Below, one piece after another: positions 9,292-54,023 of a DNA stretch of 64,000 bases; positions within the stretch are counted from its first letter, which is position 1; each line of letters starts with the position of its first letter. Source of the stretch: an uncultured Thermoleophilia bacterium (GTDB lineage: Bacteria > Actinomycetota > Thermoleophilia > UBA2241); contig CAVPCT010000005.1 of assembly GCA_963702475.1 (NCBI GenBank), positions 288,001 to 352,000 of the forward strand, written 5' to 3'. Both the position numbers and the translations under genes were made by a program. The notes beneath the pieces are model-generated. The model worked only from the letters and a program-made list of their open reading frames with translations, was not told the DNA's origin and ran no database searches.

Positions 9292-9292
9292 C

Positions 9293-12919: not shown

Positions 12920-12921
12920 GC

Positions 12922-14859: not shown

Positions 14860-14876
14860 GGACGTCCGCATCGGTC

Positions 14877-14912
14877 GCGAGGGCGGGGCGCCGGACAGCG
14901 CCCCGCCCTCGC
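14877..14912 (+). terminator. Intrinsic terminator-like hairpin after hydA2
   Basis: Perfect 15-bp stem GCGAGGGCGGGGCGC/GCGCCCCGCCCTCGC with 6-nt loop, followed by TTCGCTT. Confidence 0.7.
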
Positions 14913-14935
14913 TTCGCTTAGACTAGACACAGCCT

Positions 14936-16294: not shown

Positions 16295-16299
16295 CACGC

Positions 16300-17706: not shown

Positions 17707-17767
17707 GCCGAAGCCGGCGCCGACGCACCCGCGACCCGCACAACCTGACCGCACGGGAGGACTCTCC

Positions 17768-18037
17768 ATGAAGGACGACGGCCACATCATCCTCGGTATC
17801 CACGTCACCGAGCGCCTGAAGAACGCCGTAGAGGTGCAGAAGGTGTTCAGCGAGTACGGCTGCAACATCAAGACGCGCATCGGCCTGCACGACGTGGACG
17901 ACAGGGCCTGCTCGCCGAGCGGCGTGGTGCTCATCGAGTTCTTCGGCGCCGCGGCCGAGGCCGACGCCATGACGGCCAAGCTCAACGAGGTCGAGGGCGT
18001 CGAGGTCAAGCAGATGGTGTTCGGGCACGACGCCTGA
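17768..18037 (+). CDS. Small ACT-like hydrogenase-system protein (TM1266-like)
   Basis: VQKVFSEYGCNIKTRIGLH motif, 89 aa, directly after hydG, RBS GGAGG. Confidence 0.75.
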   Translation: MKDDGHIILGIHVTERLKNAVEVQKVFSEYGCNIKTRIGLHDVDDRACSPSGVVLIEFFGAAAEADAMTAKLNEVEGVEVKQMVFGHDA

Positions 18038-18059
18038 GCAGACGGGAGGTCGGGGCACG

Positions 18060-19490: not shown

Positions 19491-19560
19491 CGGGCGCGCG
19501 GGCGACAGGCAAGGGGGCGGCCGGGCGAGACCCGTCCGCGCGGACGACGGAGGTGGCCGC

Positions 19561-20868: not shown

Positions 20869-20917
20869 TCGCCGCCTCCGCACGCGCGGGCGGCGCCCGT
20901 CACGGGACGGGCGGCCG

Positions 20918-33006: not shown

Positions 33007-34431
33007 CTAGGCCATCGGGATGCTCGTGCTCGCGCAGGCCTGAGCAGCCTCGGACCCCGCGGCCTCGCCCGCGGCGGCGGCGCCGGCCGACGACACGCTG
33101 CCGCAGACGGTGCCGGCCAGCAAGAGCGGCACGCCGCCGGGCAGACGGTGACGGGCGACGCCGTCTGCCGCCGGCGGCGCAGCCGCGACGACAGGCTCGA
33201 GCACGAACGCGCCGGCGGCGAGCGCCTGTCTCACCAGCTCGTCGGCCGCGAGGCCGCCCGCGGCCACGCACACGAGGTCGCACGTGAGGCGCACGCACCG
33301 GCGTCCGGCGCCGCCCGGGCCCTCGAGCGCGAGCGTCGCGGCCCGCACCGAGACACGCCCGTGGGCGCGTAAGTCGCGCACACCGCCGAAGACCGGCGCG
33401 GGCGGACCGGTGGCGGCGCGTGCGGACCCGAGCGGCTCGCGTCCGCCGGCGCGCAAGTCGGCGACGGCGACCACCTCCACGCCTCCCGCGGCGAGCTCGG
33501 CGGCCAGCACGTAGCCGTCGTCGCGGTCGGTGACGACGAGGGCTCGACGACGCGCGAGCGCGCCGCAGCGCAGCAGGCGGCGCGCGGCTCCGCAAGCGAG
33601 GACGCCGGGCAGGTCGCCGCCGCGGAACGGCGGGATCCGCTCGTGCACTCCCGTGGCCAGGACCACGGCGGCGGGCTCCACAAGCAGCAGGTCGTCGCCG
33701 GCGACCACGGCGAGGACGCCCTCCTCGTACCAGCCGGCGACCTCCGCGCCGGTCAGCACGCGGAGACCCCCTCCCCGCGCCAGCTCGCCGACGCGCGTCC
33801 GCAGGCGCCGCGGCTCGGGGCCGTCGACGGCGCGCCCGCCGAGGAGCGGGTGACGCTCCACCAGCAGCGTCGGCGCGCCTGCGCCGGCGGCCGCCACGGC
33901 GGCGCTCATGCCGGCGACCCCTCCCCCGGTCACGACCACGCCGCCGCGCACGCGCTCGAGCCGCGCCCGCGCCAGCAGCCGCGCAGCCGCCTCGCGCTCC
34001 GGCAGGGCGGTCTGCCCCGCGGCGCGGGCCAGGACGCGTTCCGCCACGTGCCAGGCGCGCGGCGAACGCCGGAACCACGAGTAGTAGAAGCCGGCGTGCA
34101 GCAGGGGCGCGGCAAGCTCCGCCGCGCGCCCCAGGTCTGCGCCGGCCGACGGCCACCCTCCTTCCCGCTCGACCGCCATGCCCTCGCGCACCGGCGTGAT
34201 GCACGTGCGCACGCCGGGGAGCCCGTCCACGCGCATGGCGCAGCACGAGCACGTCCCGTTACCGCAGCGTACGCCTCGGGGGCGGTGGAACTTCGACGAC
34301 CGCCCGAACACCCGCAGCCCGTGTGCGGTCAGGGCCGCGGCCACGGTCACACCCTCGGGCGCCGTGAGCGTCCGACCTTCGAACCTGAACCGCACCAGCG
34401 GTACGCCGGGGTCGGCGGAGCCGCGCATCAC
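33007..34431 (-). CDS. Sarcosine oxidase alpha / proline dehydrogenase alpha-like subunit (2Fe-2S + FAD)
   Basis: FGRSSKFHRPRGVRCGNGTCSCC, GGGVAG, LATGVHERIPPF. Confidence 0.8.
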   Translation of the reverse strand: MMRGSADPGVPLVRFRFEGRTLTAPEGVTVAAALTAHGLRVFGRSSKFHRPRGVRCGNGTCSCCAMRVDGLPGVRTCITPVREGMAVEREGGWPSAGADLGRAAELAAPLLHAGFYYSWFRRSPRAWHVAERVLARAAGQTALPEREAAARLLARARLERVRGGVVVTGGGVAGMSAAVAAAGAGAPTLLVERHPLLGGRAVDGPEPRRLRTRVGELARGGGLRVLTGAEVAGWYEEGVLAVVAGDDLLLVEPAAVVLATGVHERIPPFRGGDLPGVLACGAARRLLRCGALARRRALVVTDRDDGYVLAAELAAGGVEVVAVADLRAGGREPLGSARAATGPPAPVFGGVRDLRAHGRVSVRAATLALEGPGGAGRRCVRLTCDLVCVAAGGLAADELVRQALAAGAFVLEPVVAAAPPAADGVARHRLPGGVPLLLAGTVCGSVSSAGAAAAGEAAGSEAAQACASTSIPMA

Positions 34432-35651
34432 CCCTCCTCCCCCGCGGACACGACCAGAGACGGCTCATGGATGAGCCTGCCCTCGCGCAGACGGTCGATG
34501 GTGAACGGCGCCAGCAGCTCCGGAGTCCTGCCGGTGGCGATCAGCTCCCCGAGCAGCGCGCCGGCGGCCGGGGCGCCCATGAACCCGTACACCCAGCCGC
34601 AGTCGAGGTAGAAGCCGTCGAGCTCGGGCACGGGCCCGAGCACCGGCGCCACGTCCTCGGCCTGGGTGCACACGCCGGCCCAGTGCCGCATGAGGCGGAC
34701 CCCGGCGAGGGACGGGAGCAGGCGCGTGAACTTGGCGGCCATGTCGCGCGCGCCCGCCAGCGATGCGCGCAGGTCCTGCTCCTCCCGGACGGGCACCGGT
34801 TCGGTGCCTCCGACGATCTCGCCGCGCGTAGTCTGATGGCAGTACGCGAGGTGGCGCGGCGAGCTGAGAGCGGGGCGGAGGAACGGCCGCAGGGGCTCGG
34901 TGACCATGGCCTCCAGGACGTAGGTGCGCAGCGGCACCTCGACGCCGGCCAGGCGGGCGACGCCGGCAGCGTGGCCGCCGGCGGCGTCCACCACCAGCGG
35001 CGTCGCGACGTGGCCGCGGCTGGTGCAGACCCCGGTCACGCGGCCGGCGACGGTCTCCACCGCGGTCACCTCGGTGCACGGGTGGACCTCGGCGCCGAGT
35101 CCGGCCCCGGCCCGGATGTAGCCCCACACCACGGCGTCGTGATGGGCGAACCCGGCGTCCGGCTGGTACATGGCGCCGCGGACCTGGCCGGGGGCCAGCG
35201 CCGGCGCCAGCTCGAGGGTCTCGGCGGCGCCGAGCACGCGCGTGCGCAGGCCGAGCGCACGCTGCATGCGCACGTGACGCTCGAAGGCGGCGACCTCGTC
35301 GTCGCTCGCCGCGAGCACCGCGTAGCCGGCCGCCGTGAACAGCACGTTGAAGTCCAGCTCGGCGGACAGCGTGCGCCAGCGCCGCAGGCTCTCGTCGAAC
35401 AGGCCCATCCACTCCTTCGAGGCGAAGGCCGAGCGGATGAGCTCGCCGTTGCGGCCGCTGGCGCCGGCGCCGGGGTACGCCGCGTCGAGGACGGCGACGC
35501 GGCCGACGCCCCGGCGCGCCAGTTCGTGCGCGACGGCCAGCCCCTGCACACCCGCCCCGATGACGACCACGTCGTAGGCGCGCCGGAGCGCGCCGGTGCA
35601 GGCGCCGGGGACGACCCTACCGCCGGGCATGACCCGGTCACGGACGCTCAT
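34428..35651 (-). CDS. FAD-dependent amine/imine oxidase (sarcosine oxidase beta / DAO family)
   Basis: YDVVVIGAGVQG, GASGRNG, AHHD, EAMVTEP, WAG, GW.YGFMGAPA. Confidence 0.85.
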   Translation of the reverse strand: MSVRDRVMPGGRVVPGACTGALRRAYDVVVIGAGVQGLAVAHELARRGVGRVAVLDAAYPGAGASGRNGELIRSAFASKEWMGLFDESLRRWRTLSAELDFNVLFTAAGYAVLAASDDEVAAFERHVRMQRALGLRTRVLGAAETLELAPALAPGQVRGAMYQPDAGFAHHDAVVWGYIRAGAGLGAEVHPCTEVTAVETVAGRVTGVCTSRGHVATPLVVDAAGGHAAGVARLAGVEVPLRTYVLEAMVTEPLRPFLRPALSSPRHLAYCHQTTRGEIVGGTEPVPVREEQDLRASLAGARDMAAKFTRLLPSLAGVRLMRHWAGVCTQAEDVAPVLGPVPELDGFYLDCGWVYGFMGAPAAGALLGELIATGRTPELLAPFTIDRLREGRLIHEPSLVVSAGEEG

Positions 35652-35934
35652 CGCCGCCTTCGCCCGCGCCGGCCGCCAGCGTACCCAGCCGCACCGGCCA
35701 CAGCGGCGGACGCACCGGCGGAGCCGGCACGTCCGCCGGATCCCGCCCCGTCAGCTCGGCGAGGAGCAGGCGCACGGCCTCGCCGCAGCTCTTGCCCTGG
35801 CACGGCCCGGTGAACGCGCCGGTGAACCGTTTGAGCGTCTCGACGTCGGCGTAGCCGGCGGCGACGGCGCGCCGCACATCTCCGGCGGTCACGTCACGGC
35901 AGAGGCAGAGGATGACCCTGTCGTCCATCGTCAC
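35638..35934 (-). CDS. BFD-like [2Fe-2S]-binding protein
   Basis: ILCLCRDVT...LKRFTG..TGPCQGKSC...RPP. Confidence 0.85.
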   Translation of the reverse strand: MTMDDRVILCLCRDVTAGDVRRAVAAGYADVETLKRFTGAFTGPCQGKSCGEAVRLLLAELTGRDPADVPAPPVRPPLWPVRLGTLAAGAGEGGDERP

Positions 35935-35979
35935 CTCAGGGGTCGACGGTGCGTCCCGGTCGCCCGCCTCCGCGACACG

Positions 35980-37164
35980 TCAGTACGCGCAGGTCAGGGT
36001 CGCGTCCACGTGGATGTCGCGGCGGTTGCACTCGGCGAAGTACGCCTCGGGCGGGATACAGGCCTCGCCGCCGAACGCGCCGCGCTCTGTGATCACGCCA
36101 CGCCCGAGCAGCAGCACCGTCACGGCCGAGAGGAACCCCACCGTGAACGCCCCGCACGACATGTCCCACGGCGGGTACGGGTGCTGGATGCTCTCGAGGC
36201 GGTAGTCCTGCAGCTGCCCGTCCCTGGTACCGCGCACGTCCACGCGCAGCACCTTGTGGTCGTCGGGTCTCGGCGGCGGGCCTGCGGCGGCCGCCTCCTT
36301 CAGCGACTCCTCCACCAGCTTCATGAGCAGGGCGCGCGGGACGACCTCCACCCCGTCCACCCCCAGCGGCTCCTTGCCGGCCAGGCCGAGCTCCACCACG
36401 AAACGCAGCTTGTCCTCGAACGCCTTGGGCAGCGACAGCTGGAAGCTCACCTCGCGGATGCCCTTGTCGCGGAACGACACGGGGATCGTCTGCGGCTCGG
36501 AGTGGATCGTGTAGAAGCAGGTCTGCGTGCCGACCGGCTCCGGGAAGTCGATGACCTCGGCGCCGGAGAACGGCGTCATCTCGCACCAGTCGCCGTCCTT
36601 GAAGATCCACGGGTCCATCATGAACTCGTTGAGAAGGGTGTCGAGAGAATACGGGGGGACGAGAGGCGCCCAGGCCGGCGCGAAGTTGACGATGCCGTCG
36701 CGGATCCTGACCCATTCGACGGTGTCCAGGCGGAGCGACGCATACCGCGCCATCACGTTGACGATTCCGGGCGCCGAGCCCGAGCCGCAGACCGCCGTGA
36801 GCCCGGCGGCCTCGAACCGGTCGTGCATCTCGAGCTGCTTCTTCGCCCAGTGGAAGAGGCCGCCCATATCGGTGTAGTGGCACCCGGCGGCGAGGCACGC
36901 CTCCATGATGCCCTCGTTGAAGTAGGGCAGCGTGGCGTTGAGACAGACGTCGATGCCGTCGAGCGCCGTCGCCGTGGCGGCGCGGTCGGTGACGTCCACG
37001 ACCGCCTGGGAGACCTTGGCGGCATCGAGAGCCTCCACGCGACCGCGCAGCGCGGTCGCGTCGGCGTCCGCCAGAAGGAGCGCCTCGACCTCGTCGTTCT
37101 CCACGAGCTCACGCACGGCGCCCTGCGCCATCTTGCCGGCGCCGCCCATCACGCAGACCTTCAC
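35980..37164 (-). CDS. Saccharopine dehydrogenase family oxidoreductase
   Basis: GGAGKMA Rossmann motif, YFNEGIMEACL, HYTDMGG, GSAPG, HSEP. Confidence 0.8.
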   Translation of the reverse strand: MKVCVMGGAGKMAQGAVRELVENDEVEALLLADADATALRGRVEALDAAKVSQAVVDVTDRAATATALDGIDVCLNATLPYFNEGIMEACLAAGCHYTDMGGLFHWAKKQLEMHDRFEAAGLTAVCGSGSAPGIVNVMARYASLRLDTVEWVRIRDGIVNFAPAWAPLVPPYSLDTLLNEFMMDPWIFKDGDWCEMTPFSGAEVIDFPEPVGTQTCFYTIHSEPQTIPVSFRDKGIREVSFQLSLPKAFEDKLRFVVELGLAGKEPLGVDGVEVVPRALLMKLVEESLKEAAAAGPPPRPDDHKVLRVDVRGTRDGQLQDYRLESIQHPYPPWDMSCGAFTVGFLSAVTVLLLGRGVITERGAFGGEACIPPEAYFAECNRRDIHVDATLTCAY

Positions 37165-41128: not shown

Positions 41129-41558
41129 CGGGCCGTCGTCGACGCCGGCGGAGCAGGCGACCACCACCTGCCCGCCCCCGTCACGTCCCGCCCCATCGTG
41201 CTCCACACGCGGCCGGTGGGTGAGAGAGCTTCCTCACCCGCCGGCCGCTTCTTCGTCTGACGGCGCGAGCGCCGAACGGCACCGTTATGCTGCCAAGCGG
41301 GTAGACCCGCTCTCGAAGGTGCTCCTGACATGCGCTGCACGCACGGGAGGCCATGATCCGCCGGGGCACGACGCGGCCACCACTGCCTGGCGGGGAGCCA
41401 CTGGTGAGACCGGCCCGAGGGCCGGTCTCGCTTCGTTCCGGGCGGGCCGGCGGCCGGGAGCTGTCGAGACCGCGGGACGAAGGAGGCGGCGATGGCGGAG
41501 CCTTCCTGCCGGACGTCGGCAGCATCCCAATCCACACGCGAGATCGCAGGGGAAGCAG

Positions 41559-41870
41559 ATGAGCGAGCACCTTGAGAGGTACCTCGGAGGCTGGCGCAGC
41601 GGGGACCCGGACATGATCCTGAACGCCTGCGCCGACGACTTCGTCATCGACGACGCCGTGGAAGGGCGCTTCAGCAAGGCCGAGTTCGGCTCGTACTGGG
41701 GCGTGCAGCCTGAAGCGGCCATCGAGTTCAGCGACGTCGTCTCCGAGGAGAGCGACGGACAGGTGACCCAGTGGGGTTGGTGGACCCAGGCGTCGCAGAC
41801 GGGCTCCTTCATGAACAAGGCGGACCGCGACGGCGTGCACCTGACCAGGGTCACCTACTTCACGCGGTAG
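41559..41870 (+). CDS. SnoaL/NTF2-like protein
   Basis: YLGGWRSGDPDMILNACADDFVIDD pattern; RBS AGGGG; ends in TAG. Confidence 0.7.
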   Translation: MSEHLERYLGGWRSGDPDMILNACADDFVIDDAVEGRFSKAEFGSYWGVQPEAAIEFSDVVSEESDGQVTQWGWWTQASQTGSFMNKADRDGVHLTRVTYFTR

Positions 41871-41988: not shown

Positions 41989-43559
41989 TCAGCGTTTCAC
42001 CCGGAACGTCTTCGTGTTGCTCCTGCCCGCGGACGTGGTCACGGTGACCTTCACCTTGCCGATCTTGGCCTTCGCCGGCACGCGGCAGGTGATGCGCTTG
42101 TCGGTCCACGAGAGGTACGCGGTGCACTTCTTGCCGCCGAACTTGACGTAGCTGCTTCCTCTGGGGCTCCCGAAGAGGAGGCCGCTCACCACCACCACCG
42201 CCTTGCGCTTGCCGGCCGAGGGCGAGAGTCTGAGGACCATCGGCCGCGGGGCGTCGCCGCCGGTGATGGTCGCGAGGATCAGGCCGCCGCTCCCCACCAC
42301 GAGGCCGTGCTTGGCGTCGGCGAAGTCGATGGCGCCGAAGTCGGCGGTCGAGCCCGTCGTCTGGGGCTTCCAGGTCGTGCCGCCGTTCCCGGTCACGAGG
42401 ATGGTGCCGCCGCGGCCGGTCGCCCACCCGAGCTTCGTCCCGAACGAGGTCACGGACGTGAGGTCGGTCGTCGTCCCGGACGACTGTCCCTTCCACGTGG
42501 TGCCGCCGTTGCCGGTCACGAGGATGGTGCCGCGGTCGCCCACGGCCCAGCCCACCGAGTCGTGGGTCATCGTGACCGACGTCAGGTCGGCGAGCGTCCC
42601 GGACGACTGCGTCGTCCACGTGGAGCCACCGTCGTCCGTGGCGATCACGGTGCCGTCTTCGCCCGCGGCCCAGGCGTGGGTCGAGTCCGTGCACGTGACG
42701 GCGTCGAGGTGCGCCGACGTGCCCGACTCCTGCGGCTTCCACGTGTCGCCTCCGTCGCGGGTCACGACGACCGTGCCGTCGTCGCCGACGGCCCAGGCGG
42801 TCGCGCCGCTCGCGGTCACGGAGGTGAGGTCGCCGGCGGTGCCGGCAGGCGCCTTGTCCCACGTCGAGCCGCCGTTGGAGGTGACCACGACGGCGCCGCT
42901 GTCTCCCACGGCCACGCCGTGCACGGCGTCGATGAAGACGACGGAGCGCAGGTCGGCCGTGGTGCCGGACGTCTGGGGACGCCAGGTGGCGCCGGCGTCG
43001 GCGGTGACGAGCACGGTGCCGCCGTCGCCCACGGCCCAGCTCTTCGTCGTGCTCACGACGGCCGTCGCGCGGAGCGTCTGCGTCGTGCCCGACTGCTGTC
43101 GCGGTCCAGCCGCCTGCGGCCGTGCCGGTGACGGTGAAGCTCGCGGCGCTGGTGGTGCTGCCGAAGGACGTGGTCACCGAGATGCGGGCCCGACGTGGCG
43201 CCGGCGGGCACGGTGCACTCGAGCTGCGTGAACGGCGAGACGTGCACGCTGGTCGCGAGCGTGCCGTTGAAGCGCACCTGAGTGTCGACGGCGAACCAGT
43301 AACCCTTCACGGTGACGAGGGTGCCCACGGGCCCACTGGTCGGCGAGAAGCCCTCGATGACCGGCGGCTCCAGCGGGACGGAGGAGAGCGTGGACGGGGC
43401 GCCGGCCGCGGGACCAGGCGGGGCGGCGGGACCGGCGCGCAGCGCCGCGGCGCCGCCCGCCGCGACCAGTGACACCACGACGAGCGCGATGACAAGCGCC
43501 GGGACGCCCGCTCGACGCCTCCGGGCCGTCGCGTGACAGGACGATGCAGTCCGGGTCAT
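41989..43559 (-). CDS. Secreted IPT/TIG + YCF48-like beta-propeller + IPT/TIG protein, with two +1 frameshifts (near 43187 and 43099)
   Basis: Signal peptide; FSPTSGPVGTLVTVKG (TIG); repeated WAVGD.GT...T.DGG.TW..Q.SGT (BNR/YCF48); removing one base at each site gives GRISVTT and WTAQQSGTTQTL. Confidence 0.75.
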
Positions 43560-43686
43560 GGCTCCCCTCCCTCGCCGGGCGAGGCCGAACGCCATCGGCC
43601 GGGCCCCGTGGCCTTCCACACTCGTGTTGTGTCCGCGACGGCGCCTTCGCGAAACGCCCAAGGCGAGGAGCCCGCTGTCGCCGGCC

Positions 43687-45156
43687 TCAGCCGACGCCGT
43701 GCCGGCGGTCGGCCTCCGCGACGATCGCACGCATCTGCGCGGCGACGTCGGGGTCGACGGGCTCGCACCGGTGTGACTCGAGCAGCTCCAGCGCCCGCTC
43801 GCGGGCGCGCTGCGCCAGGTCGGTCGAGCCCTGCGCCTGCCAGTCGTCGCGCACGCGACGGTCGAGCAGGTCGGAGCGGCTGAGGTCGCGCATGTGGCGC
43901 AGCGTGGAGTCGAGGGAGAGGAAGTCGCCGGACGAGCCGACCGCGGCGATGTCGTCCGCGGCGAGGCTCTCTTCGTCGACGCGGACGCCACCCACGGCCA
44001 TCTTGATCATGTGGGCGATCTCGTCGTCCATGACGAGCTGGCCGAAGTCGAAGGCCACGCCCGACTCGATCATCCCCGCACCGTAGATCTGGTTGGCCCC
44101 TGCCAACGCAGCCAGCAAGCCGGTGAGGGTCTTCTCGTGCCCCGCCTGGGCGTCGCCGAGCTTCGCGTCCGTCTACAACCCCGCCACGAAGCTGGGGAGG
44201 CCGTAGCGCCGCGCCAGCTGCGCGACGGCGGCGCTGATCACGGCGAGCTCGGGCGAGCCGACCGCGGCGGTGGCGAGTCTGAGGTCCATCGCGGTGGTGG
44301 ACGACCCGTAGACCATCGGGCACCCTCGCTCGGTGAGCTGCGCCAGCACGATGCTGCCGAGCACCTCGGCGTTGTGCGTCACCAGCGTGCCCGCCAGCGT
44401 GACCGGCGACGAGCCGCCGGCCATGGCCATGCTGACGACGGTGTTGGACATGCCGGAACGCGCCGCCTCGATGATGACCTCGGTGGCGTCGCGCGGCAGC
44501 TGCAGCGGGCTGACGGGGCACACGCCGAAGCCGACGAGCGGGCGGCGACGCAGCTCGTCCTCGCCGCCCGCGAGCACCCGGGCCATCGCCACGATGGCGC
44601 GCACGTCCTCCGCCGTCGTCGCCTCGCTGCCCACCGGCTTGGTGGTCTCGTGGACGGCCTCCTGCCACTTGTGCAGGCTGGCGGTGGCCGCCGGGACGTC
44701 CTCCGCTCCGACCGCCGACTCGTAGGCGTCCATACTGTCCAGGGCGTCGACCAGACGCGCCACCTCGCGCACGTCCCCGATGCCCGGTTTGCGGTACTCC
44801 CCCGTGCGCGGGTCGACGAGCATGATGCCCTCGTCGAAGTTGGAGAAGTGGACGCTGCCGGCCTCGAGCACCACGTCGTCAGCTGGGTCGCGGCCGCACA
44901 GGTGGACGGCTGGCGGACACGCGGCCACCGCGTCCTCAACGATGTGCGGAGGGATGCGCACCGTGCGCGACCCGCGGTCCACGCGACAGCCTCCGTCGGC
45001 GAAGAGGTCGAGCGGCTCGTCGTCCTCCACGAACAGGCCGGTGCGCTCCAGGACCTCGAGCGTGGCGAGGTGGATGTGGTCGATGTCGGCTTCGCTGAGG
45101 ACGTCGAGCCTCAGACCCGGGCTCCCCGGCCGGCCGGACTGCAGCGGGCGTTTCAC
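43687..45156 (-). CDS. mttB: Trimethylamine:corrinoid methyltransferase with in-frame amber (pyrrolysine, codon 328); 489 aa with read-through
   Basis: MttB fold throughout; LPSFVAGL-TAG-TDAKLGDAQAGHEKTLT...AGANQIYGAGM matches the Pyl-containing MttB motif; TAG at 44173-44175; same frame continues to TGA 43687. Confidence 0.93.
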
Positions 45157-45205
45157 GGAGCGCCTCCCTCGTGGTCGGTGGTGGTGAGGTGAGCAGCCGC
45201 GCCGG

Positions 45206-46711
45206 TCACGCGCGCGCCGCCTCGTCGGCGGCGGCCACGAGGCGACGCAGCTCGCGCTGCGCGTCGTCGCCGAGCGGCTCCGGCCGGTAGTGGTCCAAGA
45301 TGTCCCCGGCGCGCTCGCGCGCAACCTCGACGGCGTCGCGGAAGTGGCGCCCGTCGGCGGCGACCTCCTGCGTGATGGCGCGCACCACCGAGGTACGCAT
45401 GTGCCGCCGCGTGTGCACGTGGCCGAGGAAGTTGCCGCCCGGGCCGACCGCGGCGATGGCCTCGAGAGCGAGCGCCTCCTCGTCGGCCGCGACGTCGAGG
45501 AACGCCGCGCGGGCGCGGTGGTAGAGGTCGTCGTCCAGGATCAGGTCCTCGGGCGCGAACACCGTGAAGGTGCCGTGCAGACCGATACCGGTGTAGGTCT
45601 CGCAGCCGTCCAGCGGGAGCTGCAGGAGCTGCGAGGCCTGTTCCACGCCGTGCTGCCAGGTGCCGGGCTCGGTGGCGTCGGTGCCGCCGAAGGCGCCCAG
45701 CGCCGGCAGACCGAAGGCGTGCAGCAGCTCGGTCGCCAGGAAGCGGCAGCGGTCCTCGAGCGGCGCGGACAGCGTGAGCGCGCTCCGCGGGTCGGCGTAG
45801 CTGCTCATGATCGACCCCCACACCGGCGCGCCCGGCGCCGCCAGCTGGTGGAGCACGGCGGCGGCCACGATCTCGGCGGCGCCCACCACCAGGGCGCCGG
45901 CCGGCGTGGCCGGGGCCGTGGTGCCCAGGGTCGGCATGGTCACGTAGCACACGGGGATGCCGGCCTCCGCGAACACCAGTCCGGCGCCGGTGCCGTCGTC
46001 GTCGAGGACGAGCGGCGACACCGTCCCGATGAGGTCGCTGAGCGCTGAGGGAGCGCCGACGCCGCGTGCGTCAGCGACCACAGCGGCCATCTCCACGGCG
46101 CAGCGCGCCAGCGTCTCTCCCTGCACCATGCCCATCAGGTGTTTGGTCGTGTTGTTCCAGCCCGCCTCGAGCTCGTGCACCTGCGCGGCGGGGCCGCAGT
46201 CGCCGGCGCCCACAGTGGGCCACCAGAACGCGATGGACCCGAGGTAGTCCTGCATGCGCGTGACGCCGGCGAGGTCGGCCTTGGTGGACGGGCGCGGCTC
46301 GCCGGTGTGCCGGTCGACGACGTGGGTGCCGCTGCCGTCGGTGGTGCCGTAGGTCTCGCCGGAGGCGAGATCCAGGTCGGTGAGGCCGTCGCGCGAGCCC
46401 AGCACGAAGGTGCGCGGGGCGAGCGCCAGCGACTCCTGGACGAGCCGGCGCGGCAGCCGCACGAGGCCGGAGGCCTCGTCCACGTCCGCGCCGGCCTTCG
46501 CGAACAGCTTGAGGCCCTTGCGCGAGCGGCACTTGACGCCGGTGCCGGCGAGGACGGCGAACGTCGCGTCCAGGTACGGCACCAGCCTCTCCGCGTCGTG
46601 CACCTGCAGGCGGAACTCGGACCGCAGGGGCGCCAGCGGCTGCCTGCGCAGCCGCTGGGCGCCCGGCGCCGTCACGCCCGACGGTCCGGCGTCGGTCGCT
46701 CCGGCGCTCAC
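45206..46711 (-). CDS. MttB-superfamily methyltransferase (non-pyrrolysine)
   Basis: AGADVDE..GLVRLP...LALAPRTFVL, VSPL, LGTTAPATPAGALV; AFGGTDA at the Pyl-equivalent site. Confidence 0.88.
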   Translation of the reverse strand: MSAGATDAGPSGVTAPGAQRLRRQPLAPLRSEFRLQVHDAERLVPYLDATFAVLAGTGVKCRSRKGLKLFAKAGADVDEASGLVRLPRRLVQESLALAPRTFVLGSRDGLTDLDLASGETYGTTDGSGTHVVDRHTGEPRPSTKADLAGVTRMQDYLGSIAFWWPTVGAGDCGPAAQVHELEAGWNNTTKHLMGMVQGETLARCAVEMAAVVADARGVGAPSALSDLIGTVSPLVLDDDGTGAGLVFAEAGIPVCYVTMPTLGTTAPATPAGALVVGAAEIVAAAVLHQLAAPGAPVWGSIMSSYADPRSALTLSAPLEDRCRFLATELLHAFGLPALGAFGGTDATEPGTWQHGVEQASQLLQLPLDGCETYTGIGLHGTFTVFAPEDLILDDDLYHRARAAFLDVAADEEALALEAIAAVGPGGNFLGHVHTRRHMRTSVVRAITQEVAADGRHFRDAVEVARERAGDILDHYRPEPLGDDAQRELRRLVAAADEAARA

Positions 46712-48120
46712 CGCGGCACCGCCCCTCTGCGCGTCCTGACCAGGGAGCTGCGCTCACGGAACCGGTCCACGCAGTTGATGGGCAGGTCGAGAAGGTCGGC
46801 GATGTTCATCTTGGCCTCCATCGCCGTCGCGGCACCCGGGAACGGGGCCTCGGAGTCGATGATCCTGCCGAGGCCCAGCTCGCCGCGGACCTCCTGCATC
46901 GCCACGCAGTCGGAGAGGTCGGCGATGCTCACGCCGAGCCTCTCGGCCACCACACGCTTCGCCTCCGGGAGCCGCAGTCCCCGCGTCATCTGCATGCGCG
47001 CCACCAGGTCTCCGGCGGCGCGTAGCCCGTTCATCCCGCAGGCTGTCGCGTGAGCGCTGGGCATCCCGAAGATGTCGCCTGTACCCACCTACAACCCGTC
47101 CACGCGCAGCAGATCGACGAAGGCGCGCCCCACACGCGACACGGCGTCCACGGGCGGGCAGACGCTCATGGGCACGCCGCCGACCCCCATCCCGGCGTTG
47201 ACGTGCACGGGGATGCTCGCTGCGGCCACGCAGGGCTTGAGGATCGTGGCCGCGCGGGCCACGTTCCAGGCCACGGAGTGCGTGGTGTTGACGTTGACGC
47301 AGGGGCCGAAGATGGTGGCGCCGGCCTGCTCGACCACGCGCAGCTGGTCGTGAGGCCACAGGCCGGCCAGGCGCACGCCGTCGAACTCGAGCCGCCCGTG
47401 CATCCCCAGCACGAACTCGGAGGCCATGCCGACCTCGATGCTCATGGTGGGGAAGTCGCGGCGCAGCGCGCGCACCACCTCGAGCACGGCCAGGAACTCG
47501 GCGTCGCCGGCCGCGCCGCTGGTGTCGAAGTCCAGACCGTCGGCGCCGGCCTCCCAGAGCCTCTCGGCGACGTGGCGCATGTCGGCGGTCGCGTAGGCGA
47601 CCGCCGCCTCCTGCGCCTCACGCGCCTCGTCGGCACGGCCCTGCGGCAACAGCTCGGACCAGTTCGGCACGGGGCCGTCCGGCATCGAGTACCGCCCGAG
47701 GTCGGCCTGCGACCCGTAGTGCAGCGGCATCGTGAGCCGGTGCTGGGCGTCGTGCATGGCCTGGGCCTCGCCGGCGACCACTTTGGCGGCGGCGTTGTAG
47801 CAGTAGTCCTGGTGGAACAGCTCGCCGGAGTCGGCGCCGAGCATCTGCTCGTAGATCACAAGGCCGTCGATGCGCTCGTTCTGCTGCGTGCCGGTGCCGT
47901 CGTAGCTCAGGACGACCTCCTCGCCGATGTCCACGGCCGAGAAGCGCGCGGGAGAGGCGAAGATGTCGAGCAGGTGGTCGAGCTCCGCGGCGTCGAGCGG
48001 CTCGACCTTGGCCCGTTTCGCGCCGAGCGCCGAGCCCTCTTCGAGGTCGGCGCGCAGCTCGGAGCGCGTGAGGTGGACGAGCGCGCCGTCTCCCATCCTC
48101 GTCGGGATCTTCACTTCCAT
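46708..48120 (-). CDS. mtbB: Dimethylamine:corrinoid methyltransferase with in-frame amber (pyrrolysine, codon 344); 470 aa with read-through
   Basis: TRMGDG, FDTSGAAGDAEF, GMASEFVLGMHG, GMGVGGVPM, VDGL-TAG-VGTGDIFGM...RAAGDLVARMQ...EAK; TAG at 47089-47091; downstream TGA overlaps next GTG start. Confidence 0.93.
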
Positions 48121-48192: not shown

Positions 48193-48257
48193 CAAGAGCG
48201 GACGCAAGGTTTGCCCAAGAATCGGCGGTGGCGGCGCGCGATCCAGGCCCGGATACT
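48193..48257 (+). promoter_or_regulatory. Candidate operator AGGTTTGCCCAAGAATCGGC (48207-48226) with GATACT -10-like box
   Basis: Exact 20-nt copy at 50982-51001; CAAG repeats at 48193, 48205 and 48216; GATACT 25 nt downstream. Confidence 0.7.
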
Positions 48258-48306
48258 CCGTCTCAACGACTGTGCCGGCCGCGGCCGGCGGACGAAAGGG
48301 GCGCCC

Positions 48307-49725
48307 GTGGCGCGTGCGCGCATCCAGTACCTGTCGCCTCGGGAGAGCGACTTCATCCACGAGCAGACGCTGGAGCTCCTGGCGCGAGTGGGCGTCGCCT
48401 ACAACTCACCCAGGGCGCTCGACGTGCTGGAGGCAGCCGGCGTGGAGGTCGACCGGGAGAAGCTCACCGCGAAGCTCGGCTGGGAGGTGATCGAAGAGGC
48501 GCTCCGCACCGTGCCCGGACGAGTGCTGCTGGCCGGGCGGCTCCCCGAGCACGACCGCGTGCTCGGCGACGGCCGGCTGGTCACCACGAGTGACGGCATG
48601 ACCACGTACGTGCTGGACGAGCCCGGCGGCGCCCGCCGCGAGGGCACCGCCGCCGACCTGGCCACCGTCACCCGGCTCTGCGACGCGCTCGACGAGATCG
48701 ACGTGGTGTGGCCCTCGCCGCAGGCCGGCGACGTGGACGCCTGGATGATGCCGCTGGTGATGCAGGCGACGGTGGTGCGCAACACCGGCAAGCACGTGCA
48801 GGACGAGGTACGCACCCCGGAGATGGTCGAGCCGATCCTGGCGGTGTACGAGGCGGCCGCGGGCGCGACGCTGCGCGAGCGCCCGGTGTTCTCGGTGACG
48901 AACTGCACGATCGCGCCGCTGCAACACGACCGCGAGATGACGGAGGCCGGCCTGGAGCTTGCGGCACGCGGCGTGCCCATCTTCGTGCTGCCCATGCCCC
49001 AGGCCGGTACGACAGGGCCCATGACCCTGCTCGGCACCTGCATCGTGCACATGGCCGAGCTGCTCTCGGCGGTCGTGCTCTACCAGCTGGCCGTGCCCGG
49101 CTGCCCGCTCATCGCCGGGGTCGGGGCCGCCGTGGCCGACATGCGCAGCGGCGGCTACATCTCGGCGGCGCCCGAGATCGGCCTCATCAACCTGATCTGC
49201 CTCACGATGAGCAAGCGCTACGGGCTGCTCACGCAAGCCACGGGGATCTCGCCCGACGCCAAGGTGAGCGACTTCCAGGCGGGCTCGGAGGGCGGCATGA
49301 CGGGGCTCGTGGCCGCCCTCGCCGGCGCCGACTCGCTCATCGCCGCCGGCAGTCTGGACGGCGTACAGTGCTCGAGCCTCGCCAAGCTGGTGCTGGACGA
49401 CGACCAGCTCGGCGCCATCCGCCGCTACCTGCGCGAGGACCCCATCGACAAGACGGCGGCGCTCATGGACGACATCCTCGAGGTCGGCATCGGCGGCCAC
49501 TTCCTCGCGCGCCGCAGCACCCGCCACGCCGCGCGCACGGAGGTCTGGCGGCCGCGCGTGTTCCAGCGCGGGAGCTACGCCGAGCTGGCCGGTCGGTCGG
49601 TGGTGCAGGCGGCCGCCGAGCGCGCCGAGGAGCTGCTGGCGACGCACGACGCGCCGCCGCTCGCGCCCGCGGCCGAGGCGGCGATCGCCGAGGTACTGGC
49701 GGCCTGGGAGGCGCGCCGGCCCTGA
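48307..49725 (+). CDS. MttB-superfamily methyltransferase (non-pyrrolysine)
   Basis: IHEQTLELLARVGV, IAPLQHD, AGTTGPMTLLG, DMRSG...APE, TGISPDAK, GIGGHFL. Confidence 0.9.
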   Translation: MARARIQYLSPRESDFIHEQTLELLARVGVAYNSPRALDVLEAAGVEVDREKLTAKLGWEVIEEALRTVPGRVLLAGRLPEHDRVLGDGRLVTTSDGMTTYVLDEPGGARREGTAADLATVTRLCDALDEIDVVWPSPQAGDVDAWMMPLVMQATVVRNTGKHVQDEVRTPEMVEPILAVYEAAAGATLRERPVFSVTNCTIAPLQHDREMTEAGLELAARGVPIFVLPMPQAGTTGPMTLLGTCIVHMAELLSAVVLYQLAVPGCPLIAGVGAAVADMRSGGYISAAPEIGLINLICLTMSKRYGLLTQATGISPDAKVSDFQAGSEGGMTGLVAALAGADSLIAAGSLDGVQCSSLAKLVLDDDQLGAIRRYLREDPIDKTAALMDDILEVGIGGHFLARRSTRHAARTEVWRPRVFQRGSYAELAGRSVVQAAAERAEELLATHDAPPLAPAAEAAIAEVLAAWEARRP

Positions 49726-49815: not shown

Positions 49816-50898
49816 TCAGCCCAGGCGCAGTAGCGCCTGGGCAGCCGCGGCGGCGACCAGACGGAGCACGCGCTCCTCCTGGCCGCCCGCCGCACGTGGC
49901 AGGGCGACGCGCAGTACCAGTTTCCCCACGGGCGTGACCTCCTCGGCCTCCACCAGCCCGGCCGCGTCCGCGGTGTCGCGCCACCTCCCGCGCGCGACCG
50001 CTCCTTCGTCGCGCGCGCGGCCGGTCAGGTCGTCCCACTCCGCCTCCGCCGACGCGCCACCGAGGGCGCGGCACGCGAGGGCGGCGGCGGCGGCCAGCAC
50101 CTCGTCCACCGTGCGGCCGGCCACGAGCTCCGGGAGGCCGGCCACGACCGCGTCCACCGCGCTCGCCAGCAGCCGGCCGTCGGCGTCGCTGCGCGCGAGG
50201 CGGGCGAAGGTGCCCGCGTTCTGCAGCGCCACCGCGGCGAGGCCCGCGAGGGCGCGCGCGAGGCGCAGCTCCTGGTGCGTGAAACGACGCTCCCTGAGGT
50301 GGTCGTACACCTCGAGCGTGCCGACCGTGCGCCCCGCGAACACGAGCGGCACCACGAGGAGCGTCTTGTCGCCCCACTGGCGCATGATGGCGGTCTCCGC
50401 CGGGTCCGCCGCCGGGTCGCTCACCGTGATGACCCCGAGCTCCTGCACCTCGACCAGGCGGTGCGTGAAGGGGAAGCCCTTCAGCGAGTACGGGTTCCAG
50501 TCGGCTATGCGCTGCCCGTTGCGGTCGTAGTCCGCCAGCACCGACACGACGTCCGTCTCGGGGTCGTACTCCGACACGGCGCAGAAGTGACAGTCCAGCG
50601 TGGCCGTGACGCGCCGTGCTATCTCGCCGAGCAGCTCGGGCAGGTCGAGCCGGCTGGTGAGCGCCACGGAGGCGTCCACGAGGGTGTCGACCTCGCGCTC
50701 GCGGGCGAGGCGCGCGGCGGCCTGGTCGCTCGCCGCGACGAGCGTGGCGAGCTCGTCCACGTCCTCGCGCCGCATGCGCCGGTGACCGCCGGCCGTGCGG
50801 ATGCAGGGGAGGAAGCCCGAGTCGGTCCAGCGACGGATGGTGTCGGGCGAGACGCCCAGCCGGCGGGCCGCGAGCTGCACGCTCAGGTACACGGACAT
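49816..50898 (-). CDS. Excisionase/BldC-like (MerR-type HTH_17) DNA-binding protein with a GAF domain
   Basis: YLSVQLAARRLGVSPDTIRRWTDSGFLPCIRTAGGHRR; GAF region LTSRLDLPELL...LLVVPLVFAGRTVGTL...F...ELRLARALA. Confidence 0.88.
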   Translation of the reverse strand: MSVYLSVQLAARRLGVSPDTIRRWTDSGFLPCIRTAGGHRRMRREDVDELATLVAASDQAAARLAREREVDTLVDASVALTSRLDLPELLGEIARRVTATLDCHFCAVSEYDPETDVVSVLADYDRNGQRIADWNPYSLKGFPFTHRLVEVQELGVITVSDPAADPAETAIMRQWGDKTLLVVPLVFAGRTVGTLEVYDHLRERRFTHQELRLARALAGLAAVALQNAGTFARLARSDADGRLLASAVDAVVAGLPELVAGRTVDEVLAAAAALACRALGGASAEAEWDDLTGRARDEGAVARGRWRDTADAAGLVEAEEVTPVGKLVLRVALPRAAGGQEERVLRLVAAAAAQALLRLG

Positions 50899-51066: not shown

Positions 51067-52587
51067 GTGCACGTGGAACTGACGACCGCGAGCCAGACCG
51101 CCGCCCGGAGCCAGGGCCTCAAGCGCACCAGCGTCCGCCTTCTCACGGTGTTCTTCATGATCTACATCCTCGTCTCGGGCGGGTCGTTCGGCATAGAGGA
51201 CATGGTGTCATGGTCCGGCCCGGGCCTCACGATCCTGCTGCTCATGGTGCTGCCGATCGTCTGGAGCTTGCCCATGGCGCTGGTCGCGAGCGAGTTGGGG
51301 TCGGCGCTGCCCGGCGAGGGCGGCTTCTACATCTGGGCGCGGCGCGGGCTCGGCGACTTCTGGGGATTCCAGACCGCCTGGTGGTGGACCCTCTCCATCT
51401 TCGTGGACTCGTCGGTCTACGTCGTCCTGGCCGTCGGCTACCTGCAGAACTGGCTGGGCTTCGGACAGCTCTGGTTCTACGTCACCTGCTGGGCGATCAT
51501 CGCCGTGTTCACACTCGTCAACGTCTTCGGGGTCAAGCTGGTGGCACTCAGTTCGACCGTCTTCTCGGTGCTGATCATCGCGCCGTTCCTCGTGCTGATC
51601 GTGGTCGGCCTGGCGAAGTGGCAGTTCAACCCCCTGACGCCGGTGACGCCGCCGGGCGTACCGTTCTTCGGCACCAACGGCGCCCTCGGCCTCGGGCTGG
51701 CCATCGGCGTGTGGATGTACTCCGGCTACGAGTCCATGTCCACGCTTTCGGGAGAGATCCGCGATCCCCAGCGCGTGATCCCGCGCGCGCTCCTGCTCGC
51801 GGTGCCGTTCATCATCGCCATGTACGTGCTGCCCACGGTGGCCGCCCTGGCCGGCTACGGCCAGTGGGACATGTGGGCGACAGACGCCGGCGACGGCTAC
51901 GTCTCGTTCGTGGAGATCGGCAGGGCCCTCGGCGGCTCCGCGCTCGGCGTCGCGCTGCTGGCGTCGGCCCTGCTCGGCAACCTGGCGCTGTACCTGGACT
52001 ACCTGGCCTCGGGCGCGCGCCCACTCTTCGCACTCTCTACCGATCGCCTCTTCCCCGCCGCGGCGTCTCGCGTCAGCAGGCGGTTCGGTACGCCGGTCGT
52101 GGCCATCCTGCTGATGGCCGGGCTGAACGCCGTTCTCATCGTCGGACCGTTCCGGAACCTGGTGGTGATCGACGTGATCCTGTTCACGGCGTCGTACGTG
52201 CTGATCTTCATCGCCGCGGTCGCTCTGCGCGTGAAGGAGCCCGGGCTAAGAAGGCCGTTCCGCGTGCCGCTGGGGACAAAGGGCATGGCGCTCATGGTGG
52301 CACCGCCCATCGCCATCGTGCTCTTCACGATCTACGTGAACGCCATCGACCGCAGCACGGAGATCCTCGGCGTCACCGGCTTCCGGGTGCTGGGCATCGA
52401 CGTGGGCTGGTACGGCATCGGCGGCTTCCTCGCGCTGGCCTCCGGACCGGTGTGCTACCTGGCCTTCCGCCGCGCGTTCGGCGGACCGGCCACGCCGGCG
52501 GCGCAAGCCGGCGACGACGAGCTGGCGGCGCTCGCGGCGGCCGCCGAAGACGGGGACGACGAGGCCGGCCCAGGAGCGCTCGCATGA
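51067..52587 (+). CDS. APC-family amino acid/amine permease
   Basis: About 12 hydrophobic helices; SGGSFGIED, SELGSALPGEGGFYIW, YSGYE, GEIRDP, RPFRVP; start may be 51073. Confidence 0.9.
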   Translation: MHVELTTASQTAARSQGLKRTSVRLLTVFFMIYILVSGGSFGIEDMVSWSGPGLTILLLMVLPIVWSLPMALVASELGSALPGEGGFYIWARRGLGDFWGFQTAWWWTLSIFVDSSVYVVLAVGYLQNWLGFGQLWFYVTCWAIIAVFTLVNVFGVKLVALSSTVFSVLIIAPFLVLIVVGLAKWQFNPLTPVTPPGVPFFGTNGALGLGLAIGVWMYSGYESMSTLSGEIRDPQRVIPRALLLAVPFIIAMYVLPTVAALAGYGQWDMWATDAGDGYVSFVEIGRALGGSALGVALLASALLGNLALYLDYLASGARPLFALSTDRLFPAAASRVSRRFGTPVVAILLMAGLNAVLIVGPFRNLVVIDVILFTASYVLIFIAAVALRVKEPGLRRPFRVPLGTKGMALMVAPPIAIVLFTIYVNAIDRSTEILGVTGFRVLGIDVGWYGIGGFLALASGPVCYLAFRRAFGGPATPAAQAGDDELAALAAAAEDGDDEAGPGALA

Positions 52588-54023
52588 GGGCGCGGCTCGA
52601 GATCCTGACCGCCGGGGAGCGCGCCCAGGTCCACGAGCGCACCCTGGGGGTGCTCGAGCGGACGGGGATGCGCTGCGACTCGATCGAGGGTCGCCGGATC
52701 CTCGCCGACGCCGGCGCCCGGGTGGACGAACACACCGGCGTCGTGCGCTTTCCGGCGGTGCTCGTCGAGCAGGCGCTGGCGCAGGCGCCGAAGGCGTTCA
52801 CGCTCGGAGGCCGCCGTCCCGGCTGGAGGTTCGCCCTCTGTGAGGGCGAACAGACCCTGCTCGCCGACGGCGGCGCCACCGCCGTGTTCGACAGCGCGAC
52901 CGGCGAGCGACGGCCACCGACCCGCGGCGACTGGCTGGCGGCCACGCGCATCCTCGACGCGCTCGACGAGGTCGGCCTCTACTGGTGCCCGACGGACTAC
53001 CCGGCGGACTACGAGCGCGCCGGCGGCTTCGTGCGCTACTACGCGGACGCGTTCGCCACCTTCGGCAAGCACGTACAGGACTCGTTCGGCACGCCCGAGC
53101 TGGCGCCGTGGCTCGGCGAGGTCCTCGAGGCGGTGTTCGGCGGCCGCGCGCGCGTGCGCGACCTGCGGCCGCTCTCGTTCCTCATCACGCCGGCCTCTCC
53201 GCTCACCATCGAGCGCAACTACACGGACTCGTGGCTCGCGCTGCGGGACTACCGGTTGCCGGTCGCCATCATGCCGATGCCGCTGCAGGGGGCGACGGCG
53301 CCGGGCAGCCGGCTGGGCACCCTGCTGGCCGCCAACTGCGAGACCCTGGGCACGCTCTGTCTGGTGCAGGCCGCGGCGCCGGGCACGCCCGTCATCTACG
53401 CGCCGGTCGTGGCCACGATGGACCCGCGCACCGGGCTGTACGCCGCCGGCGCCGTGGAGCACGCCGTGCTCTGCGCCGCCGGCACGGAGATGGCCCGGTT
53501 CTACGGCCTGCCGGCCGAATCCTCGGGCTTCTGCACGCAGACCCACGAGCCTGACCTGCAGACCGCCTGGGAGAAGGCCAACGGCGCCCTGCTCGTCACG
53601 CTCTCCGACCCCGACATCCTGGTCGGGCCGGGGCTGCTGGCGGGCGCGACGGTGCTGTGCCTCGAGCAGCTCGTGCTCGACGTGGCGGAGTGGCGCCTGG
53701 CACGCCAGGCGCAGACGGGCATCCCGGTGCGCGACGACCTCTGGCTCGACGACGTGCTCGACCGCGTCGGGGCCGGCGGCTCGTTCCTCTCCGCGCGCTC
53801 CACGCGTGCCAACGCGCGCGGGGGCGAGGAGTGGCGCCTCGGCGACCTCGGCTTCCACGGCAGCCACGACGCGTGGCGCGCGGCCGGCGCGCCGACGACG
53901 CTGCAGTACGCGCGAGAACGTGTCACGGAGATCCTCGCCGCGCACCAGCCGGTGCCCTTCGACGACGACGTCACCGCTGCGCTCGCGGAGCTCCAACGGC
54001 GGGCCGACGCAGCCGACGCGTGA
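52584..54023 (+). CDS. MttB-superfamily methyltransferase (non-pyrrolysine)
   Basis: VHERTLGVLERTG, GVVRFP, ASPL, GATAP, DPRTG, EMARFYGLP, QTAWEK; ATGA overlap with the permease. Confidence 0.9.
   Translation: MRARLEILTAGERAQVHERTLGVLERTGMRCDSIEGRRILADAGARVDEHTGVVRFPAVLVEQALAQAPKAFTLGGRRPGWRFALCEGEQTLLADGGATAVFDSATGERRPPTRGDWLAATRILDALDEVGLYWCPTDYPADYERAGGFVRYYADAFATFGKHVQDSFGTPELAPWLGEVLEAVFGGRARVRDLRPLSFLITPASPLTIERNYTDSWLALRDYRLPVAIMPMPLQGATAPGSRLGTLLAANCETLGTLCLVQAAAPGTPVIYAPVVATMDPRTGLYAAGAVEHAVLCAAGTEMARFYGLPAESSGFCTQTHEPDLQTAWEKANGALLVTLSDPDILVGPGLLAGATVLCLEQLVLDVAEWRLARQAQTGIPVRDDLWLDDVLDRVGAGGSFLSARSTRANARGGEEWRLGDLGFHGSHDAWRAAGAPTTLQYARERVTEILAAHQPVPFDDDVTAALAELQRRADAADA

Follow-up and report, generated by a model that had tools for sequence, protein, structure and literature searches.

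How does a bacterium obtain a full-length methyltransferase from a gene that carries an amber codon in the middle of its reading frame, and is that codon read as an amino acid at all? The question is raised by a stretch of 64,000 nucleotides from contig CAVPCT010000005.1 (hereafter "the window," meaning the whole of the DNA that was analyzed). A gene on its minus strand, mttB (43687..45156), belongs to the pyrrolysine-type trimethylamine:corrinoid methyltransferases and contains an in-frame UAG at codon 328 (44173..44175, minus strand), which would be the codon for the catalytic pyrrolysine (Pyl). We consider it highly probable that mttB gives rise to a full-length MttB of 489 residues, with pyrrolysine inserted at UAG328 by means of a tRNA(Pyl) and a PylRS encoded elsewhere in the genome.

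The frame itself is plain. Translation of the minus strand gives 489 codons, UAG included, from a GTG start at 45156 to a TGA stop whose last base is 43687, and the frame is interrupted by one TAG only, at 44175..44173. The start agrees with the N-termini of the relatives P0002 and P0004, and a Shine-Dalgarno-like GGGAGG (45163..45168, minus strand) can be read from the sequence 6 nt 5′ of the GTG. At the amber codon the DNA is ggg ttg TAG acg gac, and the surrounding peptide is LPSFVAGL-TAG-TDAKLGDAQAGHEKT. The part of the gene that follows the UAG (43687..44172, minus strand) consists of 161 sense codons and the TGA. In a window with a G+C content of 71%, the G+C content at third codon positions (GC3) of mttB is 0.93 on the 5′ side of the TAG and 0.94 on its 3′ side, so both halves look coding. 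A first-pass annotation of this DNA had placed the TAG at 44173-44175, as codon 328, and had the frame going on for about 160 codons beyond it; translation, DNA, and GC3 all bear this out.

To which family does the read-through protein belong? It matches the Pfam family MTTB from end to end (316.9 bits) and the NCBIfam model TIGR02369 with 658.2 bits, over profile positions 2-469 of 469. TIGR02369 is a curated equivalog model for the pyrrolysine-containing trimethylamine methyltransferase, with a cut-off of 525 bits. Three paralogues of mttB in the window score 253.5, 332, and 303.6 bits against this model, all under 525; they are 31-34% identical to mttB, carry Gly, Ser, and Cys where mttB has its Pyl codon, and are ordinary non-Pyl members of the MttB superfamily. 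The alignment to MttB profiles that the first-pass annotation had proposed as a check therefore sets mttB apart from its paralogues. The closest solved structure is that of Methanosarcina barkeri MttB (7xcm/7xcl; 385-387 bits over residues 12-485, a 474-residue alignment with ∼50% identity), and the mttB TAG aligns on the X of chain 7xcl_A, which is residue 334, the pyrrolysine. The annotation had also stated that the TAG stands where trimethylamine methyltransferases have Pyl, a claim that agrees with both this alignment and the TIGR02369 score. As far as sequence comparison goes, mttB is thereby confirmed as a genuine trimethylamine methyltransferase gene with an amber codon at the catalytic Pyl site. 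The glycine betaine enzyme MtgB of Desulfitobacterium hafniense (PDB 2QNE, 9YCE) shares the superfamily and the TIM-barrel fold, but it has a sense codon at the Pyl column, takes quaternary amines as substrate, and matches the mttB protein with only 222 bits, against 387 for MttB; the idea that the window mttB encodes an MtgB-type enzyme was rejected on these scores.

Work on the M. barkeri enzyme allows the active site to be compared residue by residue. Among the residues named in that study are Pyl334, Tyr364, Met249, Gly372, and the Gly110-Thr111 cis-peptide (Li et al. 2023, PMC9842639). Tyr364 is described there as a proton relay to the Pyl imine, with a Y364F mutant that loses most of its activity, and the enzyme chemistry is described as needing the pyrroline ring (PMC9842639). 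The counterparts of Tyr364, Met249, and Gly372 in the window protein are Tyr358, Met243, and Gly366, of which Tyr358 and Gly366 are encoded 3′ of the UAG. All three are retained in nearly all aligned Pyl-type relatives, the sole exception being a disrupted copy in one related locus (L034).

Conservation of the amber codon provides a second line of evidence. A scan of one genome per species yielded 39 related loci, whose G+C content is 67-71% and which all come from metagenome-assembled genomes (MAGs) bearing the label Thermoleophilia, Actinomycetes, or Actinomycetota. All 38 loci that extend over the site have TAG at the column of mttB codon 328; the remaining locus, L038, ends at residue 124. 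Together the related loci hold 45 amber-bearing mttB copies, which fall into two clades. Clade A, to which the window mttB belongs, has the motif FVAGL-O and is found in 37 loci, and clade B, with YVAGL-O-GDSK (YVAGL-TAG-GDSKLFDAQ) and the motif TFGEG, is found in 8. Both clades occur together in seven loci (L004, L010, L011, L014, L021, L030, and L034), and L036 has clade B only.

The database matches show the same division. Of the best 120, 86 are fragments of 288-330 amino acids (80 of them of 327 amino acids) that end one residue 5′ of the amber codon and are 63-100% identical to the window mttB; the other 34 are full-length, 47-59% identical, and have a sense codon at the Pyl column, mostly Trp or Leu. 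A sense codon in close relatives was one of the findings that the first-pass annotation had named as able to refute it, yet all of these matches with at least 63% identity stop here, and sense codons appear only at 47-59%. In a quick tree, the window mttB groups with P0002, which is 89% identical to it (Shimodaira-Hasegawa-like approximate likelihood ratio test [SH-aLRT], 100), inside a clade made up wholly of amber forms (98). Elsewhere in the tree, amber and sense-codon forms interleave, and many of those forks are weak. In the full-length relatives P0005, P0012, P0015, P0022, P0033, P0048, and others, the Pyl column is filled by Leu, Trp, or Ser, any of which a single base change can produce from TAG. 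Two of the full-length sense-codon relatives are labelled as an Actinomycetes and a Thermoleophilia bacterium.

If the part of the gene beyond the TAG is translated, it should be under selection, and it is. Past the TAG, 30 of the 37 clade A copies remain open for another 161-162 codons before they reach a stop; three further copies run off the end of their locus, and four are interrupted earlier. These early interruptions may be assembly indels, since the corrinoid gene that neighbors mttB in L008 is also frameshifted. Measured against the 30 complete clade A copies, the ratio of nonsynonymous to synonymous divergence (dN/dS) of the window mttB is 0.29-0.47 upstream of the TAG and 0.28-0.41 downstream, and its identity is 67-74% upstream and 67-76% downstream. 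Purifying selection thus acts on both sides and with equal strength, which is the opposite of the relaxed selection that had been put forward as another refuting observation.

From these features we infer pyrrolysine insertion and a reaction like that of the M. barkeri enzyme. By that analogy, trimethylamine would add to the pyrroline imine of Pyl328, with the counterparts of Tyr364, Met249, and Gly372 in place to support the addition. The methyl group would then pass to the Co(I) of a corrinoid protein, with release of dimethylamine, and the dimethylamine could in turn be demethylated by a Pyl-type MtbB, whose gene stands two places upstream in the operon. The corrinoid protein, a reductive activase, a methyl-corrinoid:tetrahydrofolate transferase, and pylTSBCD would all have to act in trans.

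The gene for that second enzyme, mtbB (46708..48120, minus strand), encodes a pyrrolysine-type dimethylamine methyltransferase (Pfam Dimeth_PyL, 534.8 bits; TIGR02368, 433.4 bits versus a cut-off of 369.1) and has an in-frame TAG of its own at 47091..47089. In relatives, seven open reading frames (ORFs) of the N-terminal part of mtbB terminate at TAG, and wherever the sequence of an inspected locus extends far enough, the C-terminal part is found behind them. Between mtbB and mttB lies one of the non-Pyl MttB-superfamily genes (45206..46711, minus strand; Pfam MTTB, 171.5 bits; TIGR02369, 253.5), whose GTG start overlaps the mtbB stop (GTGA) and which is separated from mttB by 49 bases. With only 32% identity to mttB and a Gly at the Pyl column, the product of this middle gene probably acts on a different substrate. 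No promoter or terminator was found in a scan of 43000-48600.

The first-pass annotation had argued that a TAG at the catalytic Pyl site of two genes speaks against sequencing error or decay, and this argument gains force: both TAGs are there, the one in mttB is kept in 38 of 38 loci, and selection is not relaxed behind it. Its further suggestion, that the order mtbB(Pyl)-mttB(non-Pyl)-mttB(Pyl) reflects sequential demethylation of trimethylamine to dimethylamine to monomethylamine, stands only in part. The order is real, but gene order is no evidence for such a series. There is no mtmB among the window ORFs scanned with Pfam, so monomethylamine would be either an end product or handled elsewhere.

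It is tempting to leave the matter there, but several observations weigh against pyrrolysine insertion at codon 328. Scans for tRNAs, Rfam families, and Pfam families found no pylT, pylS, or pylBCD in the 64-kb window, and the ORFs that were called up to 10 kb from mttB in the related loci, 39 in number, include no pyl gene. Nor does the window encode a corrinoid (B12-binding) protein or an activase (Pfam; tblastn with the relatives' proteins, best E = 0.22), unlike the many relatives in which mttC directly follows mttB. TAG still ends 84 of the 348 strongly coding ORFs (24%) outside the Mtt clusters of the related loci, and since it is still an ordinary stop, pyrrolysine insertion at codon 328 must compete with termination. 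No RNA structure is supported 3′ of the UAG: over 120 nt, z = −0.20, and 76 of 200 shuffled sequences fold at least as well. Finally, the window MttB has Asp108-Glu109 (motif NFDEG) at the columns of Gly110-Thr111, a pair that is reported as fully conserved in Pyl-type MttBs (PMC9842639).

How serious is the lack of partners? That the window would hold no corrinoid protein, activase, or pyl genes had been recognized in the first-pass annotation, and the Pfam, tblastn, and tRNA scans lead to the same result. No tRNA with a CUA anticodon is present in the window, in which ARAGORN finds five ordinary tRNAs, and it finds no tRNA in any of the 39 related loci. Of the two radical-SAM genes of the window, neither is that of PylB; they encode HydG and HydE. 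For the related loci, Pfam and NCBIfam were run on one representative per ORF cluster, together with the window ORFs, and the ORFs came from a simple GC3-based caller, which may miss small or frameshifted genes. With this approach, an ORF cluster that includes a 208-amino-acid corrinoid protein was found in 27 of the 39 loci. The gene adjoins a Pyl-type mttB or mtbB, often directly 3′ of mttB, and its product scores 194 bits against TIGR02370, under the 215.3 cut-off of that model. An activase of the RACo/AcsV type is encoded in 12 of the 39 loci. Since 12 of the 39 loci have no corrinoid gene up to 10 kb from mttB, partners that act in trans are common in this group. By the same token, no pyl gene was found in the vicinity of mttB in any of the 39 loci, so their absence there is uninformative, and in this lineage the machinery would lie elsewhere.

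This bears directly on the best surviving alternative, in which mttB is a relic: the mttB and mtbB frames are intact and were conserved until recently, but the organism has lost its pyrrolysine machinery or its corrinoid partners, so that translation stops at codon 328 and the operon is idle. The empty 64 kb, the mttC retained behind mttB in many relatives, and the use of TAG as a normal stop codon in the lineage would all be expected of a relic. Yet neither a second stop nor a frameshift interrupts the frame beyond the TAG, where GC3 is still 0.94 and dN/dS is as low as upstream; mtbB in the same operon is likewise intact, and the window's lack of a nearby corrinoid gene and of pyl genes is shared with 12 and with all of the 39 loci, respectively. 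We therefore give a relic gene a small chance.

A second alternative holds that no read-through is needed, either because mttB is a split gene or carries a nonsense mutation and its N-terminal 327 residues work alone, or because the C-terminal part is made from an internal start. Standard gene callers do split both mttB and mtbB and report mttB as a 327-amino-acid protein (P0001), and an in-frame TTG lies 19 codons past the TAG. But the stop falls exactly at the catalytic Pyl position, and the active-site residues Tyr358 and Gly366 are encoded 3′ of it. Moreover, the first possible restart is at codon 347 in the window and at codon 351 in 33 of the 36 related clade A sequences, and the 18 codons between the UAG and this start, which would be untranslated, are 83% identical to the relatives, the best of the three segments that we compared. 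The open frame, the equal constraint on both sides, and the identity of these 18 codons together rule out decay and, for practical purposes, a split gene, which we regard as very improbable.

Competition between pyrrolysine insertion and termination is also a feature of other pyrrolysine-using bacteria. In the window, two Pfam-supported genes end in TAG (33007..34431 and 61076..62653), and these genes, together with the 24% of coding ORFs in the related loci that end in TAG, indicate that TAG has not been reassigned genome-wide. Least probable of all is that the UAG is read through as something other than Pyl, by a general amber suppressor or because TAG is reassigned throughout the genome: the residues of the sense-codon relatives, Trp, Leu, or Ser, are, it is true, each a single base change away from TAG, and archaea that read every TAG as Pyl have been reported (bioRxiv 10.1101/2024.09.30.615893), but Pfam-supported genes such as the HlyD-like 61076..62653 stop at TAG at their expected ends, the chemistry calls for the pyrroline ring (PMC9842639), and the Pyl-activating Tyr is retained here although several sense-codon relatives have lost it (Phe in P0005, Ala in P0012). 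A MacB-like permease gene (59879..61072, minus strand) begins in frame 3 nt beyond the TAG of the HlyD-like gene (61076..62653, minus strand), and read-through of that TAG would fuse the two proteins.

If UAG is both a stop and a pyrrolysine codon, does the mRNA carry a signal that distinguishes the two? Rfam PYLIS_3 matches mttB at 44076..44175 (minus strand) with 70.3 bits, against a gathering score of 38, and the match begins exactly at the UAG; in mtbB, PYLIS_2 matches with 63.2 bits and likewise begins at its UAG. The PYLIS_3 model has only about 8 base pairs, and in the RNAalifold consensus 4 of 52 pairs have a change on both sides. With few pairs in the model and a fold no better than that of shuffled sequences, we do not take the matches as evidence for a structure and read them as conserved coding sequence only.

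The codons near the UAG are more unusual. In all 37 clade A sequences (the window and 36 loci), the codon directly 5′ of it is UUG, as it is in all seven clade B copies aligned, and TTG makes up 2.3% of the Leu codons in the window. Further downstream, UUG351 is the same in 19 of 20 aligned sequences and GCA352 in 20 of 20, GCA being 4.4% of the window's Ala codons. These rare UUG and GCA codons lie on a small hairpin, GUUGGC-AGGG-GCCAAC (44092..44107, minus strand; RNAalifold, A2 columns 84-99), 66 nt 3′ of the UAG. Across the aligned sequences its consensus is GUUGGC-AGGN-GCCAAC, and with 19 of the 20 identical, the pairing draws no support from covariation. Within each clade, synonymous divergence (pS) is at its minimum in the first codons after the UAG: 0.10-0.12 in clade A, compared with 0.334 gene-wide, and 0.05 in clade B, compared with 0.28 gene-wide. 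No such dip is seen between the clades, nor between the window and either clade, so the window mttB does not share this signal of synonymous constraint. The mRNAs of Thermoleophilia Pyl-type mttB might carry a signal flanking the UAG that favors pyrrolysine insertion over termination, though we consider this unlikely. All the same, the codon context offers a testable handle on how bacteria separate pyrrolysine codons from stops.

The Asp108-Glu109 variant deserves similar care. Gly110 is reported as 100% conserved in 66 aligned Pyl-type MttBs (PMC9842639). Among the best 120 database matches, NFDEG is found in 86 of the 86 amber-truncated proteins and in none of the 34 full-length ones, and F-G-E-G or something similar is found in clade B and in more distant clusters of ∼327-amino-acid proteins. 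In the structure, the contact at Gly110-Thr111 is described as being made by a main-chain carbonyl (PMC9842639), and Asp108-Glu109 is for that reason better regarded as a clade-specific variant within the family than as a ground for exclusion. It might, though this is unlikely, mark an enzyme whose substrate has changed or which activates Pyl in another manner; the NFDEG clade and the TFGEG clade are found side by side in 7 related loci. Both the NFDEG variant and the UUG-UAG context appear to be new, in that, as far as our searches of the literature on pyrrolysine and mttB in Thermoleophilia or Actinobacteria show, and within the portions of those sources that they returned, neither is described.

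How does mttB compare with known systems? Acetohalobium arabaticum, Desulfitobacterium hafniense, and Bilophila wadsworthia, which belong to the Firmicutes and Desulfobacterota, are pyrrolysine users in which UAG serves both as a stop and as the pyrrolysine codon of methylamine methyltransferase genes, and their pyl genes often lie near the methyltransferase genes. As in the lineage of the window, TAG is not depleted as a stop in these bacteria, but in none of the 39 loci studied here did the ORFs called up to 10 kb from mttB include a pyl gene. M. barkeri MttB (PDB 7XCL, 7XCM, 7XCN) shares with the window protein its fold family, the alignment of Pyl334 with the UAG, and Tyr364, Met249, and Gly372. 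It differs in its host, which is archaeal whereas that of the window is bacterial, in having Gly110-Thr111 in place of Asp108-Glu109, and in having Ser before Pyl where the window has Leu (UUG); the window, in turn, has no adjoining mttC.

Closer parallels come from the actinobacteria themselves. Actinobacteriota MAGs from Stordalen Mire are reported to express Pyl-type mttB and mtbB, recognized by their amber truncation (Ellenbogen et al. 2023, PMC10805028); these are genes of the same phylum with the same amber-interrupted pair, compared here through their published description only. A count of 81 bacterial genomes encoding PylRS included only two Actinobacteria, and the supplement lists a PylSc from a "Thermoleophilia bacterium" and one from an "Actinobacteria bacterium" (Guo et al. 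2022, PMC9630628). The Thermoleophilia PylSc comes from the same class as the closest genomic relatives of the window, a comparison that again rests on its description. Pyl-type mttB and mtbB in actinobacteria are thus uncommon but already reported, and the window is a further example.

Genetically encoded pyrrolysine is rare in bacteria, and the window adds a clear case, a pair of amber-recoded methylamine methyltransferase genes that share an operon in a high-GC actinobacterium. That the 39 related loci come from Thermoleophilia, Actinomycetes, and Actinomycetota MAGs suggests that the trait is widespread in the class. If the genes are active, these bacteria would consume trimethylamine and dimethylamine, which are also substrates of methylotrophic methanogens. 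There is a lesson for annotation as well, as standard callers leave such genes as fragments that end one residue before the pyrrolysine codon, as 86 of the best 120 matches do. The locus would gain further interest should the codon context turn out to act as a recoding signal, or should the Asp-Glu variant alter the chemistry of the enzyme.

The two other non-Pyl MttB-superfamily genes lie upstream of the operon on the plus strand. The first is divergent from it (48211..49725; Pfam MTTB, 252.7 bits; TIGR02369, 332; Ser at the Pyl column). It is followed by a gene for a regulator with a MerR-type helix-turn-helix and a GAF domain (49816..50898, minus strand), a candidate regulator of the cluster, a homologue of which stands beside MttB-family genes in L034. 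Next comes an APC-family amino acid or amine permease (51067..52587, plus strand), for which the best named model is an ethanolamine permease, far under its cut-off. The last of the paralogues (52584..54023, plus strand; Pfam MTTB, 203.6 bits; TIGR02369, 303.6; Cys at the Pyl column) has an approximate start, an ATG that overlaps the permease stop.

The superfamily is heavily expanded in the related loci, and a single cluster comprises 251 ORFs or ORF fragments from the window and the 39 loci. Its genes there accompany amino-acid-type ABC transporters and agmatine-deiminase-like genes. In several loci, clade B mttB adjoins mtbB and a TetR/BetI-type regulator, and a PRK07046-type transaminase gene follows the corrinoid gene in related loci. 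A gene with a YbaK/ProX-type aminoacyl-tRNA deacylase domain is found directly beside a non-Pyl MttB-family gene in 9 of the 39 loci (e.g., L001:11484-11954, L002:17975-18445, L004:18576-19049, and L010:18225-18842), which is a surprising neighbor for the methyltransferase island of a pyrrolysine-decoding lineage.

What kind of organism carries this operon? The host is most likely a high-GC (71%), anaerobic, soil-type actinobacterium of the class Thermoleophilia. An [FeFe]-hydrogenase gene set with the maturases HydE, HydF, and HydG points to the anaerobic lifestyle. This region (418..22018, plus strand) contains a set of NuoE/NuoF-like genes and HydA that looks electron-bifurcating, as well as a second HydA, a hydrogenase-like histidine kinase, and several response regulators in addition to HydG, HydF, and HydE.

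Further genes in the window are mentioned for completeness. At 33007..37164 (minus strand) lies an operon similar to an opine or amine oxidase system, with genes for a saccharopine-dehydrogenase-like protein, a sarcosine-oxidase A3-like 2Fe-2S protein, a DAO-family FAD oxidase, and an FAD/2Fe-2S oxidoreductase. In related loci, too, MttB-family genes have DAO-family and saccharopine-dehydrogenase-like genes next to them. Immediately 3′ of mttB, a gene for a surface protein with BNR/Asp-box and IPT/TIG domains (41989..43500, minus strand) is seemingly split over two frames, with a signal-peptide-like N-terminal part in the frame of the ORF 43053..43991 and the rest in 41989..43056, a split that may be a frameshift or an assembly indel. 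Beyond it, an ORF without a family match (41220..41870) shares its start region with a c-di-GMP-II-GAG riboswitch aptamer (41337..41424, plus strand; Rfam RF03169, 56.8 bits; gathering score, 40).

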